Positions 49,532-62,847 of a stretch of 64,000 nt of DNA are shown piece after piece (position 1 is the first letter of the stretch; each line of letters opens with the position of its first letter). Both the position numbers and the translations under genes were made by a program. A model generated the notes under the pieces. That model worked only from the letters and a program-made list of their open reading frames with translations, was not told where the DNA came from and did no database searches. Origin of the DNA: Candidatus Bathyarchaeota archaeon (GTDB lineage: Archaea; Thermoproteota; Bathyarchaeia; Bathyarchaeales; Bathycorpusculaceae); the NCBI GenBank assembly GCA_963833575.1, contig CAWHXY010000004.1, positions 544,001 to 608,000 on the forward strand, in the 5' to 3' direction.

Positions 49532-49586
49532 CTTTGTTTTGTTCCTTATTATTCTAGGTATCGCTTCTAACAAAAATCACACAAGT

Positions 49587-49623
49587 AGAAGAAGAAGTGC
49601 GCATTTTCCCTTTTTCTTCTTCT
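49587..49623. repeat. Solo GAA/TTC hairpin related to the 56.3-kb array
   Basis: AGAAGAAGAA-GTGCGCA...-TTCTTCTTCT. Confidence 0.5.
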
Positions 49624-49662
49624 TTCAGTTTTTTTCCGAATTAAATCCTTTTGTTGCAAGAA

Positions 49663-53971: not shown

Positions 53972-54160
53972 TTACCGTTCTTCGTATTCTTTTCCTTCTT
54001 GAATAAGCTTATGGGCCCTCTGTCCGCCCTTTGGTCCGCCGATTTTTCCACCTTTGCGACCAATTTCACTGTAAAATTCTTCTCCATGCATCTCAGCAGT
54101 TCTTAAGCCGCCCTTTCTTCCAGCTTCTGCAACAGTCATCTGACCTTTTTTCTCTGACAA
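53972..54160 (-). CDS. KGG/Em stress hydrophilin
   Basis: MTVAEAGRKGG...EFYSEIGRKGG...KGG..KLIQEGK. Confidence 0.88.
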   Translation of the reverse strand: MSEKKGQMTVAEAGRKGGLRTAEMHGEEFYSEIGRKGGKIGGPKGGQRAHKLIQEGKEYEER

Positions 54161-54246
54161 AGTATTTCACCTCCATTAAAAAAAAGAACTCTAAAGTTAA
54201 ATTAACATAAATTTTGAATCGAGCAAAATAGGGCAGAAAGAAGATT

Positions 54247-54564
54247 TTATTCTGCTTCGCGCTCTTTACCTTCTTGAATCAGTTTTCGGACTCTTTGTCC
54301 ACCTCGGTGACCTGCTTCTTCAAGGCTTGTTTTCCCTGCAGCTGCAGTAGTGCCTTCATGTTGCTTAGCTCTCTCAGAACCACCTTTGCTTCCAATCTCA
54401 CTGTAAAATTCAGGTCCACGTTCTTGAGAAACCTTTTCGCCGCCTTTGCGACCTATTTCTTCGTAAAATTCGCGACCGTGTGTTGCCGCGGTTTTTTCGC
54501 CGCCTTTCCTTCCTGCCTCAGCAACAGTCATCTTGCCTTTTCTATTTTCATCACGCATACTCAA
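54247..54564 (-). CDS. KGG/Em stress hydrophilin
   Basis: Four KGG-type repeats, C-terminal VRKLIQEGK. Confidence 0.88.
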   Translation of the reverse strand: MSMRDENRKGKMTVAEAGRKGGEKTAATHGREFYEEIGRKGGEKVSQERGPEFYSEIGSKGGSERAKQHEGTTAAAGKTSLEEAGHRGGQRVRKLIQEGKEREAE

Positions 54565-54800: not shown

Positions 54801-56279
54801 ATGAAAGTGCTTCTTGTTAATCCGCCTCAAACATTTTATCCAGGCTCAGAACAGCCGGCAGGAAATATTCCTTTGGGCTTGATGTACATTGGGGCGGTTC
54901 TTGAAGGAGCAGGTTACAAATCTGAAATATTGGATGCGTTCATGGCTGATTGTTTGTTCCAAAAAAAAGGCGAAACCATCAACGTTGGAATGCCGTTTGA
55001 TCAAATACTACAAGAAATTCGCATTCGCAAACCCGACATTGTCGGCATAGCAGGACCATTTTCGAGTCAAATAGAAAATTCAGTTAAAATAAGCGAGTTA
55101 GCCAAACAAGTTAACCCAAGTATTTTAACAGTTGTAGGCGGTCCCCACGTCACTACGGTACCGAAAGAGTTTCTTGAAGAAGCAAAAAATGTTGACGTCG
55201 CTGTAATGGGAGAAGGAGAATACGCCATGCTTGACATAGCCAAGTTTTTTGAAGGCAAAAAAGAGCTGCATGAAATTCTTGGAGTCGCCTACCGTCAAAA
55301 TGGAAAAGTGATGATAAATTCTCCCAGACCCTTCATCAGAAACTTAGATGAACTTCCATACCCTGCCTACGACTTAATCGATATGGAGAAGTATTTAACT
55401 AACAAAAAAATAGGGTACCGCAGCTTCAGAAACAGAGCAATATCGATGGTAACAAGCAGAGGATGCCCCTTTAACTGCTGTTTTTGTTCCGTTCATCTAC
55501 ATATGGGCAAGGAGTTTAGAGCCCACTCTGCAAGGTACGTTTTAAAACACATCGATTATGTTGTGGAAAAATTCAATGTCCAGAACATTTTTTTTGAGGA
55601 CGACAATCTTACCTTTGACTTAAGCAGGTTTGAAGCAATCTGTGACGGATTAATTGAGAAGAAAATTAAGATTGGTTGGGAAACACCAAACGGCGTTAGA
55701 GCAGACCGCTTAAACTTAAAGTTGCTTCAAAAAATGAAAAAATCAGGCGCCCAAAGCGTATTTTTCGGTGTAGAATCAGGCGACCAGCAAATCTTGAACA
55801 ATGTAATTTACAAGAGCCTAGACTTGGACCGAGTTGTGGAGGTCGCAAAAATTTGCAAGGACATTAAATTAAAAACCGGCGCATTTTACATTATCGGTTT
55901 TCCAGGCGAAACCAAAGAGAACATGCAGAAAACCGTTGATTTTGCTTTAAAGCTTAAACGGGATTTTGATGTTGGAATGCATCTGTTCATCGCTACTCCG
56001 TCATACGGGACGAGATTGTATGACGAATGTAAAGCTAAGGGTTACATTCGAGAAGATTTGAGTTGGAATTCTTTTGCTGAAGCACGTCAACCCAAAGGTA
56101 TGCCTCTGATTTCGACTGAAGACTTTTCCCCTCAAGAAGTCAAAGAGATAGCTGCTAAAGCGCTTGAGGAGTACAAAAAACTATCTTTATTGAACCATAT
56201 TAAAAATCCGAAAAAAGCGTTAAAGACAGCATTTGATCAACCACAACTAATTTTGAAATACATCAAAAACTTGTTATAG
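54801..56279 (+). CDS. B12-binding radical SAM protein
   Basis: PLGLMYI, VGGPH, TSRGCPFNCCFC, FEDD, GVESG, IGFPGET. Confidence 0.93.
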   Translation: MKVLLVNPPQTFYPGSEQPAGNIPLGLMYIGAVLEGAGYKSEILDAFMADCLFQKKGETINVGMPFDQILQEIRIRKPDIVGIAGPFSSQIENSVKISELAKQVNPSILTVVGGPHVTTVPKEFLEEAKNVDVAVMGEGEYAMLDIAKFFEGKKELHEILGVAYRQNGKVMINSPRPFIRNLDELPYPAYDLIDMEKYLTNKKIGYRSFRNRAISMVTSRGCPFNCCFCSVHLHMGKEFRAHSARYVLKHIDYVVEKFNVQNIFFEDDNLTFDLSRFEAICDGLIEKKIKIGWETPNGVRADRLNLKLLQKMKKSGAQSVFFGVESGDQQILNNVIYKSLDLDRVVEVAKICKDIKLKTGAFYIIGFPGETKENMQKTVDFALKLKRDFDVGMHLFIATPSYGTRLYDECKAKGYIREDLSWNSFAEARQPKGMPLISTEDFSPQEVKEIAAKALEEYKKLSLLNHIKNPKKALKTAFDQPQLILKYIKNLL

Positions 56280-56328
56280 GCAAGGAGTGCGGCAAAATTT
56301 TGGAGTATTCAGGCAACTCCAAACATTG

Positions 56329-56474
56329 GAAGAAGAAGAAAACTTGCGGTGTGCACACTTCTTCTTCTTTGCAAGCTTAGAAGAAGGAGGACAATCGCAG
56401 GGAGCACCGTCCTCCTTCTTCTTTCAAGAGAAGAACAACAACAGTTGCCCGTAGCACCGGGTTGTTGTTCGTCT
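56329..56474. repeat. Three tandem ~50-nt hairpin units with covarying stems
   Basis: GAAGAAGAAG/CTTCTTCTTC, AGAAGAAGGAGGAC/GTCCTCCTTCTTCT, AGAAGAACAACAAC/GTTGTTGTTCGTCT; loops share GC-N5-GCAC. Confidence 0.8.
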
Positions 56475-56552
56475 TTAGATAAAAGCCCAATCGAAAAATT
56501 TAGGATAACTTGCATTTTTTGCCATACCAATTAGTTTGAAGCGGAACTGCTG

Positions 56553-56580
56553 GGATTCGCCTAAAAGTTTAATCGAATCT
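56553..56580. repeat. 11-6-11 inverted-repeat site 1 (att/dif-like)
   Basis: GGATTCGCCTA-AAAGTT-TAATCGAATCT, preceded by degenerate GCGGAACTGCTG. Confidence 0.55.
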
Positions 56581-56782
56581 TTTCTCAGAATAGCAATCAA
56601 TACGGCGGCGATCATATCTTAATTACGATGCGAATATTTATAGTCGAAGTTTACCTATCTTAGTCTGCGGAATGGAGCCGCATTGTGTAACTGGAAAGAA
56701 GGGAGACTACCAAACTCGAAGATCCCGAGAAATGGGTCTTTGCTTCTGAGCCATTCTGTATTTGTGTGCAGGTTGAAGAATT

Positions 56783-57682
56783 ATGACTGAAGGATTAAAC
56801 ACTATTATGAACAGGCCATTTGAAGTAGATAACTCAGAATACCCGTTCAAAGACAACTGGCTATCTTATCGTGATGGGTATATTCATTATCTTGATGAGG
56901 GAAAAGGACCTACTCTTCTGCTTCTTCACGGAAATCCCACGTGGTCATATATTTACAGAAATATCATCAAGGAATTGCGAGGAGAATGTCGCTTAATCGC
57001 TTTGGATTATCCGGGATTCGGGATGTCAAAAGCACCTTCCCAATATGGGTTTACACCCCAAGAATAGTCAGAGGTGGTCCTCGAATTGATCCGTCGCTTG
57101 GAATTAAAGAGCATCGTCCTTGTGGTTCAAGATTGGGGTGGACCTATCGGTATGAACTATGCAGTTCAGAACAGATCAAACCTTCGCGGACTTGTGGTAA
57201 TGAACACTTGGGCATGGCCCGCATCCTTTCTTCAAAGACTATTCTCCCTTGTTATGGGAGGATGGCCCATAGGGTACTGGCTTCAAACACACAGAAATTA
57301 CTTTGCAAAAGCAATGTTACCCGATGGGATTTTCCACAAAGAAAAGGTTACGCCTAGTTTGAGAAAAGCCTATACTGACCCATTTCCGACGGTGAACTCA
57401 AGGAAACCCACCTATATTTTCCCGGGGCAGATCCGAAAAGCGCATGCGTGGCTGGGAAAGATTGAGTCAAAACTCCCGATTCTGGGGGACCTGCCAGCAC
57501 AAATTCTCTGGGGAAATAAGAACGACCCCGGTTTCGGACCTAAAGAACTGGAAAAGTGGCAAGGATTTCTAAAGATGCATGAAACTGAGACCATTGATGA
57601 TGCTTCACACTCTGTTCAAGAGGATCGACCTGATCGGGTTGTCGCGGCTATCCGAAGAGTTCTTGAGAGAACGCACGGCTAG
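56783..57682 (+). pseudogene. Haloalkane-dehalogenase-like alpha/beta hydrolase interrupted by in-frame TAG (57065-57067)
   Basis: LHGNPTWS, DYPGFGMS, VQDWGG, NTW, H..QED; both halves in the same frame. Confidence 0.85.
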
Positions 57683-59507: not shown

Positions 59508-60111
59508 TTCTCCATTAATAGCGGAAGATACAGGTTCAACATGTATCTTTACAGGTATAATGGTGCTCGTTTTGGTCTTTCCTAACTCATCTAAATAAAC
59601 TACTTTCGGGTTAGAGTTGAAAACCCCTATTTTTCTTGTTCATTATTCTGTTATCAATAATGCGTTTTATTGTTTCTTTTTCGTAGGCAACTCTTAGTTT
59701 TAAGATTTTGCCGCCCCGACCCCTTTCACCTGGAAAGAATCGAGCTTCAACTAGACCCCGACTCTCCAATTCAATCAACGCCTTTCCCCTGCGTCCTCCA
59801 TAGCCATACATACTGGACCTTGACAACCTTCCTTCATTAATAATATTCATTAAAGATCTCCAACCAGCTTTTTCCTGTGCAATTCTACGTTGCATATAAT
59901 CTTCGACAAAAGCTCTTACAAGACAGTCAAAGGCTTTCTGGGCAACTTCAGATTTGAACTCAAATCTATCGAATATGACCGAGGTGACCATTTCTCCATT
60001 AATAGCGGAAGATACAGGTTCAACATGTATCTTTACAGGTATAATGGTGCTCGTTTTGGTCTTTCCTAACTCATCTAAATAAACTACTTTCGGGTTAGAG
60101 TTGAAAACCCC
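59145..60111. repeat. Exact 483-bp tandem duplication (59145-59627 = 59629-60111)
   Basis: Base-by-base comparison found no differences; single T between the copies. Confidence 0.9.
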
Positions 60112-62847
60112 AGCTTTCAATGCCTGCAAAGTAAGCTTCACAGTCACAACTTGAAAAGCGCCAATTTCCTTGTTTTTCGTCTCAATGCAAAAATTCTTGA
60201 AATCGAAATTGGGCGACAGAGCGGTAACTTTGAATCCGTCCGAAGGAATTATGCCCTCAACTTTGATGAACACGCCTGGCTTCCGTGAGGCGTTCACCAA
60301 ATCGAGACGCATCTCCAACTCTTCGCCAACCATAACTTCTTTACGAACCATCAAATGCGTTTGTAAATTAACATGGGCAAACCTTTGTTCAATTTCTTGA
60401 ACAGCATTCTGCAATTCTTCACTCTGAACCCTAGCCTCCTCAAATCGACCTTCCTTCTCAAGAGCCCAAACATAAAATGTTTTTCCATAAATTTCAGCTC
60501 CGATTGGAGTGGGTATGGTTGGCATCACAACCTCATCAAATAGTCGTTCTTTGAAACATCGGTTTGCGTCTTTCCACTCGCTTTTTCCTGTGAAAAAGAC
60601 TGCTTTGGACAGTGCTCCCTCTACAAACACGTTCTTTTGCACTTCAGCAGGCAGTTTCACGAATTTGTCAAAGTATTCTTCTGCGTGCTTCAAGTCTCCA
60701 AGTCGGGAATATATCCTAGAAAGGTTAGTATATACAATCCCTGGGGCTATGAGATTATCTGTTTTCTTTGATGCCTCCAAAGCTTTCAGACAGTAAGACA
60801 GCGCCTTTTCCCAATCGCCCATAAGCTCATATGGTCGAGCCGAAAAAGCATTTGCATAGACCAACCTGTTATACTCACCCATTTTCAATTTCTCATCAAT
60901 TTCTATAACTTTCGCAAACATCCCTAACGCTTCTTGATTAAGTCCCAAATTGCAGAAGTTTTCGCCTGCTGGCCAGTAGGCCTCCATTTGGAAACGAAAA
61001 TCACCCAGTTCCTCAAAAAGTACAATCGCGCGCAACGACTCAGCTATTCCTTCATAGGAATTGCCAAGCAGAGAATGGTACATTCCCACTCCAACCAAAG
61101 CCAATGCGAAGTCCCAATAAGAATGCTCTTCCTCAAAAATACGCAAAGCATTTGCCATGTCTTCAAGCGCAAGCTTAACATTCCCCTGCCCGAAAAAGCT
61201 GACTCTTCCTCGGTTAATTAGAACTCTTGCGTTTTCTAACCGATCGCATTCAAAATATGGTTCAGCTTTGTTGATCAGTTCCATTAATTGAGGAATATCC
61301 ATGCATTGAAAAGCAGATTCCATTGCCTTTCTTAAAGCGCGCAGCTTTGTGATGCCCGTTTCATTCTTGCCCAATTCCTCGAATGTTCTAATTGCTTCTT
61401 TGAACATGCTATTGGCGTAGTAAGCGTCTCCCAATCCCTCCCAAGCCTTTCTTCTATTTTCAGCGTTTTTAGTATTTCCGGCGAGGCTACCCAAAATATA
61501 AGTGAAGTGTTTGATGGCTTCCTCGTTGCTCCACCTCAGTAGTGCATCTCGTCCAGCGAGAAAGGAGTATTTCACCGCTTTTTCCTTATTTCCCGCTTGA
61601 GCGTAATGAAACGCCAAGTCATCAATTGAGAAACCATTCGCTTCATAGATGCCAGCTTCAATTTTCTCTGCAATCCTCGAATGGTACTCTTTTCTTAGGA
61701 GTGGAGGGATTTCCTCGTAAAGCATTTCTCGAGACTTTTCGTGACTAAACCTGCAGCAGTTTTCATCACAATGTATAATCAATGTGGTTTTTGCAGTCTC
61801 ATTTAGTGCTCTTAGAACGCTTGCATAGTCTTGTAACACTGCGGCAGCGATTAACTTGGGATCAAATTTTTCTCCCACTACAGAAGCTGCATCTAAGACT
61901 ATTCTTTGATCGGATTTCAAGGATTCTAATCTTAGCAGCATCACGTCCTTAATTTTTTTTGGAATTTCAAAGTTATCAACGCGGAGACTCCACTTACCGT
62001 TAGTTTTGATGAGTCTTCCTTGTTGATGCATCATTCTTAGAGATTCCACGACAAAAAGAGGATTGCCCATGGTATCGGTTGCTAACTTTTCCCCAAAATC
62101 TGAGAGCACTAATCCGCCTAACATGTTCTCAGCGATTCTTCGAACATCATCTTGGCTGAGGCTGGAAAGTTTAACTTCTCGGTAGAGATCCTCCCGCCCC
62201 ATTAGAAGTAGTTCTTTGGATAGTGGATTAGGATGACCTTCAATATTTACGTTGAGTCCCTCGCTTCTGAAAGTTGCTATGATGAGAATTCTCTCAGAAA
62301 CCGCTTGGCGGGCAAGATAATGAAGCAACGAAAGAGAAGCTGAATCAGCCCAGTGAAGGTCCTCCATAACTAAAATCAAGGGTTTTTTCGTTGATAAGAA
62401 CAGCAGTTCTTTAGCGATTGCCACAAACACCTGATCCTTCCATACTAGAGGAGATGTGTTTCCAAGTGTCTCGTTTGCTTCAGATTGATTTTTGATAAGC
62501 CATGATTTCATGCTTAATTGCTGATTAGCAATCGTTCCTCCATAGTGTTCATTGCTTGATATGTAAGAGTCAAAGGCTTCCATGAAGGGGAAGTAGGGAA
62601 CTGCGACGTTGCTTAGGCACCAGCCAGATAAGACAGTGACTTGCTTCTTCTTGACGATGTTTAAAAATTCTGTGGTAAGTCTGGTTTTTCCTGCGCCCGC
62701 CTCTCCAGAAATAAAAACGGTTACTCCTTTCCCTGACGAAGCCTGGGCTAAGCATCGTTTCAACTCTTCAAGCTCTTTTTCTCTTCCCACTAGAATTGGT
62801 TCAGCTAAGATTCCAGAAGTCAATTCTTGATTTTGCGCCCATTTCAA
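59611..62847 (-). CDS. STAND (AAA_16-type) ATPase - TPR - Ig-like - wHTH protein
   Basis: LVGRE.E, GEAGAGKT, EDLHWAD, GNPLF, TPR-like helices, beta-sandwich, C-terminal wHTH-like ELESRGLVE. Confidence 0.85.
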   Translation of the reverse strand: MKWAQNQELTSGILAEPILVGREKELEELKRCLAQASSGKGVTVFISGEAGAGKTRLTTEFLNIVKKKQVTVLSGWCLSNVAVPYFPFMEAFDSYISSNEHYGGTIANQQLSMKSWLIKNQSEANETLGNTSPLVWKDQVFVAIAKELLFLSTKKPLILVMEDLHWADSASLSLLHYLARQAVSERILIIATFRSEGLNVNIEGHPNPLSKELLLMGREDLYREVKLSSLSQDDVRRIAENMLGGLVLSDFGEKLATDTMGNPLFVVESLRMMHQQGRLIKTNGKWSLRVDNFEIPKKIKDVMLLRLESLKSDQRIVLDAASVVGEKFDPKLIAAAVLQDYASVLRALNETAKTTLIIHCDENCCRFSHEKSREMLYEEIPPLLRKEYHSRIAEKIEAGIYEANGFSIDDLAFHYAQAGNKEKAVKYSFLAGRDALLRWSNEEAIKHFTYILGSLAGNTKNAENRRKAWEGLGDAYYANSMFKEAIRTFEELGKNETGITKLRALRKAMESAFQCMDIPQLMELINKAEPYFECDRLENARVLINRGRVSFFGQGNVKLALEDMANALRIFEEEHSYWDFALALVGVGMYHSLLGNSYEGIAESLRAIVLFEELGDFRFQMEAYWPAGENFCNLGLNQEALGMFAKVIEIDEKLKMGEYNRLVYANAFSARPYELMGDWEKALSYCLKALEASKKTDNLIAPGIVYTNLSRIYSRLGDLKHAEEYFDKFVKLPAEVQKNVFVEGALSKAVFFTGKSEWKDANRCFKERLFDEVVMPTIPTPIGAEIYGKTFYVWALEKEGRFEEARVQSEELQNAVQEIEQRFAHVNLQTHLMVRKEVMVGEELEMRLDLVNASRKPGVFIKVEGIIPSDGFKVTALSPNFDFKNFCIETKNKEIGAFQVVTVKLTLQALKAGVFNSNPKVVYLDELGKTKTSTIIPVKIHVEPVSSAINGEMVTSVIFDRFEFKSEVAQKAFDCLVRAFVEDYMQRRIAQEKAGWRSLMNIINEGRLSRSSMYGYGGRRGKALIELESRGLVEARFFPGERGRGGKILKLRVAYEKETIKRIIDNRIMNKKNRGFQL

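Follow-up and report, generated by a model that had tools for sequence, protein, structure and literature searches.

A hairpin array in a bathyarchaeal genome and its probable descent from an internal fragment of a head-tailed virus gene

Palindromic sequences that lie outside genes, within genes or in both places are known from several systems. Rickettsia palindromic elements (RPE) are found between genes and also in frame within genes, the translated copies adding segments to the protein, and they insert into many unrelated genes. In phage P22, chromosomal look-alikes of the packaging site (pseudo-pac sites) start the packaging of host DNA. Non-coding chloroplast DNA undergoes minute inversions of hairpin loops, so that either loop orientation is met among close relatives, with the stems unchanged. 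REP-like elements have been reported to be widespread in bacteria and archaea (PMC12306157).

Here we analyse an array of hairpins in a stretch of 64,000 nucleotides (the window) from the genome of a Candidatus Bathyarchaeota archaeon. This genome (G000) comprises 2.75 Mb in 8 contigs, has a GC content of 41% and encodes TFB and pelota; mcrA was not found in it. No description of the hairpin or of the repeat family to which it belongs was found in the literature searched, in which REP-like elements of archaea are treated in general and which lists surveys of the viruses of Bathyarchaeia and other archaea. The features of the window used below are as follows, in positions counted from its first letter.

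49583-49627, minus strand: a second, solitary A-type hairpin of the family, flanked by genes for a CoA-binding protein and an HtrA-like protease
54801-56279, plus strand: B12-binding radical SAM gene, with its stop about 10 nt before the start of the element (~56290)
56290-56325, minus strand: element tail, containing an 8-bp hairpin; aligned with the tails of other copies
56299-56306/56316-56323: arms of the small hairpin, 8/8 bp; inverted-repeat search
56329-56369, no strand assigned: unit A, GAA/TTC stem of 10-11 bp; repeat search and genome scan
56330-56340/56359-56369: arms of unit A, 11/11 bp; inverted-repeat search
56379-56422, no strand assigned: unit B, GGAGGAC stem, 14/14 bp; repeat search, and 71.5 bits with the covariance model CM R1
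56379-56392/56409-56422: arms of unit B, 14/14 bp; inverted-repeat search
56430-56475, no strand assigned: unit C, CAA/TTG stem of 10-13 bp; repeat search and scan
56430-56439/56461-56470: arms of unit C in the shorter form, 10 nt, 90%; inverted-repeat search
56431-56443/56463-56475: arms of unit C in the longer form, 13 nt, 85%; inverted-repeat search
56477-56525, minus strand: probable left extension; aligned (MAFFT) with the left extensions of the copies at C4:150221, 492323 and 744369
56543-57682, plus strand: upstream region and two-frame alpha/beta hydrolase gene; ORFs and comparison with relatives

The array occupies positions 56299-56476 and consists of three hairpins of about 50 nt and a small fourth one. 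An initial annotation, made from the letters of the window, had proposed hairpin units with a GC-N5-GCAC loop, and this holds: inverted repeats are present, each unit contains one such motif (C4:600345, 600396 and 600446, that is, 56345, 56396 and 56446 of the window), and the 201 nt from 56280 to 56480 are predicted to fold with -74 kcal/mol on the plus strand (z -5.36) and -76.4 on the minus strand (z -6.90), values that 0 of 200 dinucleotide shuffles reached on either strand. Its stem counts were nearly right. The 14/14 pairs of unit B and the additional hairpin ahead of the three units (8/8 bp at 56299-56323) were recovered; unit A, previously given 10/10, now has 11/11; and the 13/14 credited to unit C was slightly generous, a separate scan giving that unit a perfect 10-bp stem. 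We also observed a direct-repeat family (D1) of three 31-nt copies spaced by 51 and 50 nt. Tandem Repeats Finder reported nothing between 55000 and 58000, and the array is therefore not a microsatellite. It is not CRISPR-like either, as had been noted before: the arms differ between the units, and a repeat-spacer pattern is absent. A search of Rfam gave 11 matches, all of them below threshold (E 0.3-6) and to generic hairpins, the best being SSRC34_1 with 27.2 bits against a gathering score of 64.

Homologous units exist elsewhere. A scan of the whole genome located hairpins of types A, B and C at about 18 loci across G000, usually in the order C (CAA/TTG), B (GGAGGAC), A (GAA/TTC), followed by a tail of about 45 nt; the units are about 45-50 nt in size with loops of 16-19 nt, and four of the copies have a left extension of about 45-55 nt in common. 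Using CM R1, which models the B unit and whose matches were counted on both strands, we found matches in 39 of 120 genomes of the genus, with seven or more in 13 genomes and none in 81. The C-B-A layout recurs in G044, G114, G123 and G081 with loop variants typical of each species. A degenerate 21-mer derived from the B loop was also compared with a contig database and gave, among the matches listed, only chance matches in unrelated bacteria. In five loci of two genomes (L222, L223 and L224 of G114, L255 and L256 of G081), the A hairpin has a 3' arm that has grown to long (CTT)n runs of variable length, which looks like microsatellite-like slippage.

The hairpins are the best preserved part of the element. 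Thirteen copies from G000 were compared, to the exclusion of three that have flipped loops; pairwise identity averages about 80% for the hairpins, 66% for the B loop, 48% for the tail and 37% for unrelated flanks. Covariation, on which the structural argument of the initial annotation had been built, is informative between the unit types and across the viral gene family described below, whereas among the 16 B units of G000 alone it does not exceed that of shuffle controls because these copies are too alike.

Several copies can be followed through related genomes. The copy upstream of pelota occurs in G000 and G044 but neither in G013 nor in G021; at C6:224669 a copy is found in G000 and G009, whereas G123 and G114 lack it; and the one upstream of an ABC ATPase gene is common to G000, G009 and G123. 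Several chromosomal copies are, from these distributions, old. The family thus shows the presence/absence polymorphism at orthologous sites that is expected of MITEs, and it consists of dispersed extragenic palindromes in composite clusters, as do REP/BIME elements. Neither target-site duplications nor terminal inverted repeats were seen in the alignments of the copies or at filled and empty sites, where the flanks are strongly diverged, and no enzyme was seen in association with the elements.

What the initial annotation missed is the origin of the units in the coding DNA of a virus gene. The source gene encodes a protein of about 150 residues with an N-terminal HTH, a hypervariable linker and a conserved helical C-terminal domain. 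The N-terminus weakly resembles Myb/GcrA HTH domains (Pfam gave weak HTH matches only). PHROGs returned 'transcriptional regulator, D5-like' for two of four source proteins and nothing for the other two, and neither PHROGs nor Pfam gave a match to a family of small terminase subunits. The C-terminal part of the protein is encoded in 69 of the 120 genomes of the genus, often in several copies, the gene was found in 55 IMG/VR contigs, and at least 250 database proteins contain that C-terminal part, all of them without a name. At 12 of 15 genome loci a further ORF begins at the end of the source gene or overlaps it, 11 of these ORFs being 334-509 residues long and one 138 (L277); on viral contigs the next ORF has 468-525 residues in 10 of 10 cases. 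All seven following ORFs tested contain PF03237, the large terminase domain, and the source gene accordingly lies directly upstream of terL in virus genomes. From gene position and domain layout, we regard it as a putative small terminase gene (terS).

The genome of the window itself contains one decayed provirus (C4:798200-799751; L344, L341), the terL of which is split by a stop or frameshift and the terS-like gene of which has an internal deletion that leaves the first seven and the last ~27 codons. A provirus border at the hairpin was sought in G000 and not found; the resident terS was internally deleted instead. Contig C17 of G044 breaks off 15 nt into the C-terminal part of the gene and about 20-25 nt beyond the hairpin, apparently because the assembly was interrupted at a repeat. 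The ends of IMG/VR contigs do not fall at the hairpin. Eight independent viral contigs (L290, L295-L297, L301, L303, L306 and L323) end about 2.87 kb downstream of the terS-like gene, and these shared ends may represent a genome or provirus boundary or a recurrent assembly break.

The linker of the source protein is encoded by a hairpin. In 16 of 17 genome-encoded genes (the exception is L280), a hairpin of 10-15 bp is present in the 84 nt before the motif L-P-x-E-L; other segments of those 17 genes give means of 5-7 bp, and only 0-3 of 100 codon shuffles reached the observed value. Among 51 distinct genes from viral contigs, the best hairpin of the whole gene (8-15 bp) falls at nucleotides 134-215 in all except one (L302), just before a P-x-E motif and with many different stems. 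By lineage, the stems are GAA/TTC, CAA/TTG, GTA/TAC, GAT/ATC and GTT/AAC, as well as mixed forms, and the linkers therefore read E..S, Q..C, V..T or D..S. Nothing at the protein level would explain why Gln runs should be paired with Cys runs; it is therefore the nucleic-acid fold that is kept. The occurrence of at least five stem alphabets at the same position of one gene family upholds the earlier view that structure is under selection and that the array is not a microsatellite. As judged from sequence, these comparisons show the hairpin to be native to the gene and under strong structural selection. No triple hairpin was seen in any of the viral genes compared.

Homology between the chromosomal elements and this gene is supported by the hairpins and by what surrounds them. 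At L215 of G044, a B hairpin and tail lie inside a pair of small ORFs just upstream of a large terminase gene (PF03237), and with a one-base difference found in the second copy (L207) the hairpin is in frame, as ...LLKEEVGQSDTAPRPTSSLELP... In the window, unit B on the plus strand reads LEEGGQSQGAPSS, within an ORF at 56287-56454, and resembles the linkers of P0037 and P0081; unit C on the plus strand reads REEQQQLPVAPGCCSSL, within an ORF at 56349-56534, and resembles those of P0049 and P0029; unit A has the same stem and loop type as the linker of the gene at L268. The three units match different linkers and therefore correspond to three linker subtypes. The previous statement that no reading frame is credible is thus right for a continuous ORF and wrong for the units taken singly, which read as linker peptides of viral proteins. 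The junctions between units repeat a few bases that flank the gene hairpin, as expected from tandem duplication of a segment of about 55 nt.

On the minus strand, the tail of the window copy resembles DNA encoding ...LELPEELPS..., which is located just 3' of the hairpin in the viral gene, and the probable left extension resembles DNA for the end of the HTH domain. When the left flanks of eight genes were compared with all of G000 by blastn, the only matches were the left extensions of the copies at C4:150221 and C4:492323 (E 9e-5). A profile of the right flanks of 19 genes gave 41 matches in G000 at E<10, five of which, with ranks 1, 2, 4, 9 and 26, are element tails in the correct place and on the correct strand. 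We stress that the window's own tail is not among the matches at E<10, and that the flanks of the window copy match the gene by eye and in the family alignment only.

The orientation of the loops varies among copies. In the window copy, the spacers, the tail and probably the left extension follow the canonical order on the minus strand, and all three loops are reverse-complemented with respect to canonical copies. Partial flips are found at C8:141364 (B only) and C7:272359 (A and B), and the C and/or A loops are flipped at L212 and L214 of G044 and at L261 of G013. Orthologous copies also differ, in the C loop between C4:492323 of G000 and C7:37132 of G044 and in the A loop between C6:224669 of G000 and C315 of G009. 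The stems are the same on both strands, and the loop flips are therefore minute inversions.

The surroundings of the array point to a rearrangement. Of 61 genomes searched, 59 retain the radical SAM gene, at whose stop codon synteny breaks off. The array lies about 300 nt upstream of the alpha/beta hydrolase gene, and the sequence from about 56550 onwards is located elsewhere in G044, G068 and G063, where the hairpin element is absent from the 650 nt upstream of that stretch. In G009 a B-A-tail copy lies between the radical SAM gene and a tRNA gene, and in G021 the radical SAM gene adjoins the tRNA with nothing between; the 3' end of the radical SAM gene thus carries an element in G000 and G009 but not in G021. 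A tRNA scan of the window was negative, and the window thus lacks the tRNA by which the radical SAM gene is followed in G009 and G021. The window element evidently fills the junction of a rearrangement, at a break of synteny, and the array is a relic at that junction and not a new RNA system.

Other features of this region were recorded. The minus-strand tRNA-like gene directly after the radical SAM gene in G009 (L022) and G021 (L029) apparently has an intron. The alpha/beta hydrolase gene consists of two ORFs, at 56783-57067 and 57074-57682, which are in different frames and match consecutive parts of Abhydrolase_1; a frameshift, a pseudogene or an error of sequencing could account for this. 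Two small minus-strand ORFs (62 and 105 aa) at 53972-54564, just upstream of the radical SAM gene, encode KGG-repeat-like stress proteins. A minus-strand ORF of 1078 aa at 59611-62847 combines an AAA_16/STAND-type ATPase with TPR repeats, matches BrxC/BrxD weakly and may encode a defence or signalling NTPase.

From these observations, we consider it likely that the array is a non-coding copy of a dispersed family descended from an internal fragment of a gene of head-tailed archaeal viruses. The linker of that gene is encoded by a DNA or RNA hairpin of 10-15 bp, of which the fold and not the peptide is kept by selection. A fragment comprising the HTH-coding end, the hairpin and about 50 nt after it would have been copied into intergenic DNA of the host in one clade of the genus; the hairpin unit would then have been tandemly triplicated to give C, B and A, each the counterpart of one linker subtype, and the element would have multiplied to occupy some 10-20 loci in each genome. 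Copies would have persisted, some at orthologous sites across species, with the hairpins far better preserved than the flanks, and the loops would have flipped frequently through minute inversions between the arms. Copying, triplication and multiplication are steps that we infer from the present-day copies. That an internal gene fragment makes an odd multiplying unit counts against the explanation. A function of the chromosomal copies (as pseudo-pac site, decoy or insulator) could underlie the preservation of the hairpins and the persistence of copies at orthologous sites, or the hairpins may be preserved only by arm-to-arm correction of palindromes.

As to the hairpin within the gene, our guess is that it is a cis site of the virus, most likely a pac-like one, because pac sites often lie within terS (bioRxiv 10.1101/851345). 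This leads to a reading in which the arrays on the chromosome function as pseudo-pac sites: the small terminase of infecting or induced viruses would bind the hairpins and packaging of host DNA would start there, so that the arrays would serve as decoys against the virus or would drive the transduction of neighbouring genes, with the three subtypes serving three virus lineages. The location of the hairpin inside a putative terS gene agrees with this, as do the pac sites within terS of many viruses (bioRxiv 10.1101/851345), the correspondence of the three units to as many linker subtypes, the retention of hairpins while flanks decay, the failure to find an associated transposase and the occurrence of elements in any intergenic context and in either orientation. 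However, G000 has a single decayed provirus with an internally deleted terS, and IMG/VR contigs do not end at the hairpin, and we think it unlikely that the arrays work in this way. The proposal in its widest form, that the linker hairpin is the packaging site of a large family of archaeal head-tailed viruses, bound up so closely with the small-terminase gene that the fold of the DNA determines the protein sequence (E..S, Q..C and V..T linkers), and that the three-hairpin arrays are multi-specific pseudo-pac sites, is one we offer only as an improbable conjecture. Were it true, viruses of any of three lineages would package the chromosome next to the arrays, which would spread in this way by transduction and homologous replacement, with no need of a transposase, while also acting as terminase decoys.

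Alternatively, the array could encode a small RNA or act in cis at the RNA level, for instance as a processed hairpin RNA, as a sponge for proteins, or as a stabiliser or terminator in an untranslated region; the initial annotation had named a processed small-RNA array and a multivalent protein-binding RNA among its possibilities. Structure is strongly predicted on both strands, and 8 of 9 copies of G000 between co-directional genes point the same way as these genes. Elements occur in tandem, divergent and convergent intergenic regions, and at 60 loci elsewhere (from G044, G114, G120, G123, G081, G013 and G092) no orientation rule is seen: 15 are co-directional, 20 are anti-directional, 10 are divergent and 11 convergent, and 4 are without a called neighbour. 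A bias towards a downstream gene (14 of 17 loci, in G000 only) was rejected as a rule, since it was not reproduced at those 60 loci, and GC skew and gene-strand bias along the contigs gave no replichore signal to explain element orientation. Counted over 62 B units, G-U pairs amount to 66 on the loop-sense strand against 107 on the opposite one, and total folding energies are alike; there is therefore no sign of RNA-level selection on one strand. The chromosomal copies are without a strand-specific signal. Reverse-complementation of the loops, seen both among copies and among orthologues, would abolish any sequence-specific loop of an RNA, and the best Rfam match (27 bits) falls far short of its gathering score. 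The conserved left extension of about 45 nt, present in some copies and containing an A/T-rich box, is explained as decayed coding DNA. Four RNA-library runs were examined as contigs, and family members are contained in short contigs from the RNA libraries of three studies, at a depth of 4-15; these are other copies than that of the window, the contigs are compatible with DNA carry-over or read-through, and at their length the parts of the stretch that they leave uncovered carry no meaning. They are a weak hint that transcription of family members is possible. In sum, an RNA function for the array seems to us quite doubtful. The suggestion of REP-like sites fared differently, in that dispersed intergenic palindromic repeats are indeed what we find, and these are extragenic and clustered in composite arrays, as sites of the REP/BIME or IS200/IS605 type would be; their mobilisation as single-stranded DNA hairpins by a Y1 (HUH) transposase or RAYT is, however, very hard to credit. 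Copies number tens, not hundreds. The co-occurrence of genes, proposed as a check, speaks against it: PF01797 is found in 4 of 11 element-rich genomes (G000, G120, G123 and G013) and has no match in the other seven (G044, G114, G081, G009, G092, G001 and G132), the figure for the genus overall being 42 of 120. The sole Y1 (IS200-type) locus of G000 (C7:653945-654303; L148) consists of two frames with a TGA between them and is flanked by GC-rich hairpins unrelated to the family.

Descent from a virus gene, which remains our preferred explanation, would matter in several respects. A hairpin kept at one spot of a gene with at least five stem alphabets is a clear case of structure overriding the protein code, and it offers a concrete candidate for a packaging signal of uncultured archaeal viruses. 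A dispersed REP-like family in an archaeal genus could originate from the middle of a virus gene, which would link the repeat content of the host to its virome and raises the prospect of a route of spread that is free of transposases. The frequent flips between orthologous copies provide a natural system for the study of minute inversions at short inverted repeats.

The family shares with REP/BIME elements the form of short extragenic palindromes that are dispersed, often in composite arrays, and better kept in structure than in sequence. It differs from them in having tens of copies per genome, no association with RAYT and no conserved 5' tetranucleotide tag, as well as in its units of ~45-50 nt with a loop of 16-19 nt and in an origin that is traceable to the coding DNA of a virus gene. 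With MITEs it has in common that it is non-autonomous, about 150-250 nt long, intergenic, patchy in relatives and present or absent at orthologous sites; no terminal inverted repeats or target-site duplication were seen in it, between strongly diverged flanks, and its source, unlike theirs, is the middle of a gene, not the ends of a transposon. RPE resemble it as palindromic repeats that are both intergenic and in frame in coding genes, but the coding form of the present hairpins invariably occupies one linker position in a single gene family, to which it looks native. As with pac sites inside small-terminase genes, a cis-acting nucleic-acid signal, here a candidate, lies in the gene just upstream of terL; here, however, a long perfect hairpin dictates the linker peptide, and the chromosomal copies, in contrast to pseudo-pac sites, are true homologues with flanking gene DNA and not chance look-alikes. 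The loop flips, finally, have their counterpart in the minute inversions of chloroplasts, from which they differ in the type of genome and in that up to three neighbouring loops are flipped (in the window and at C7:272359).
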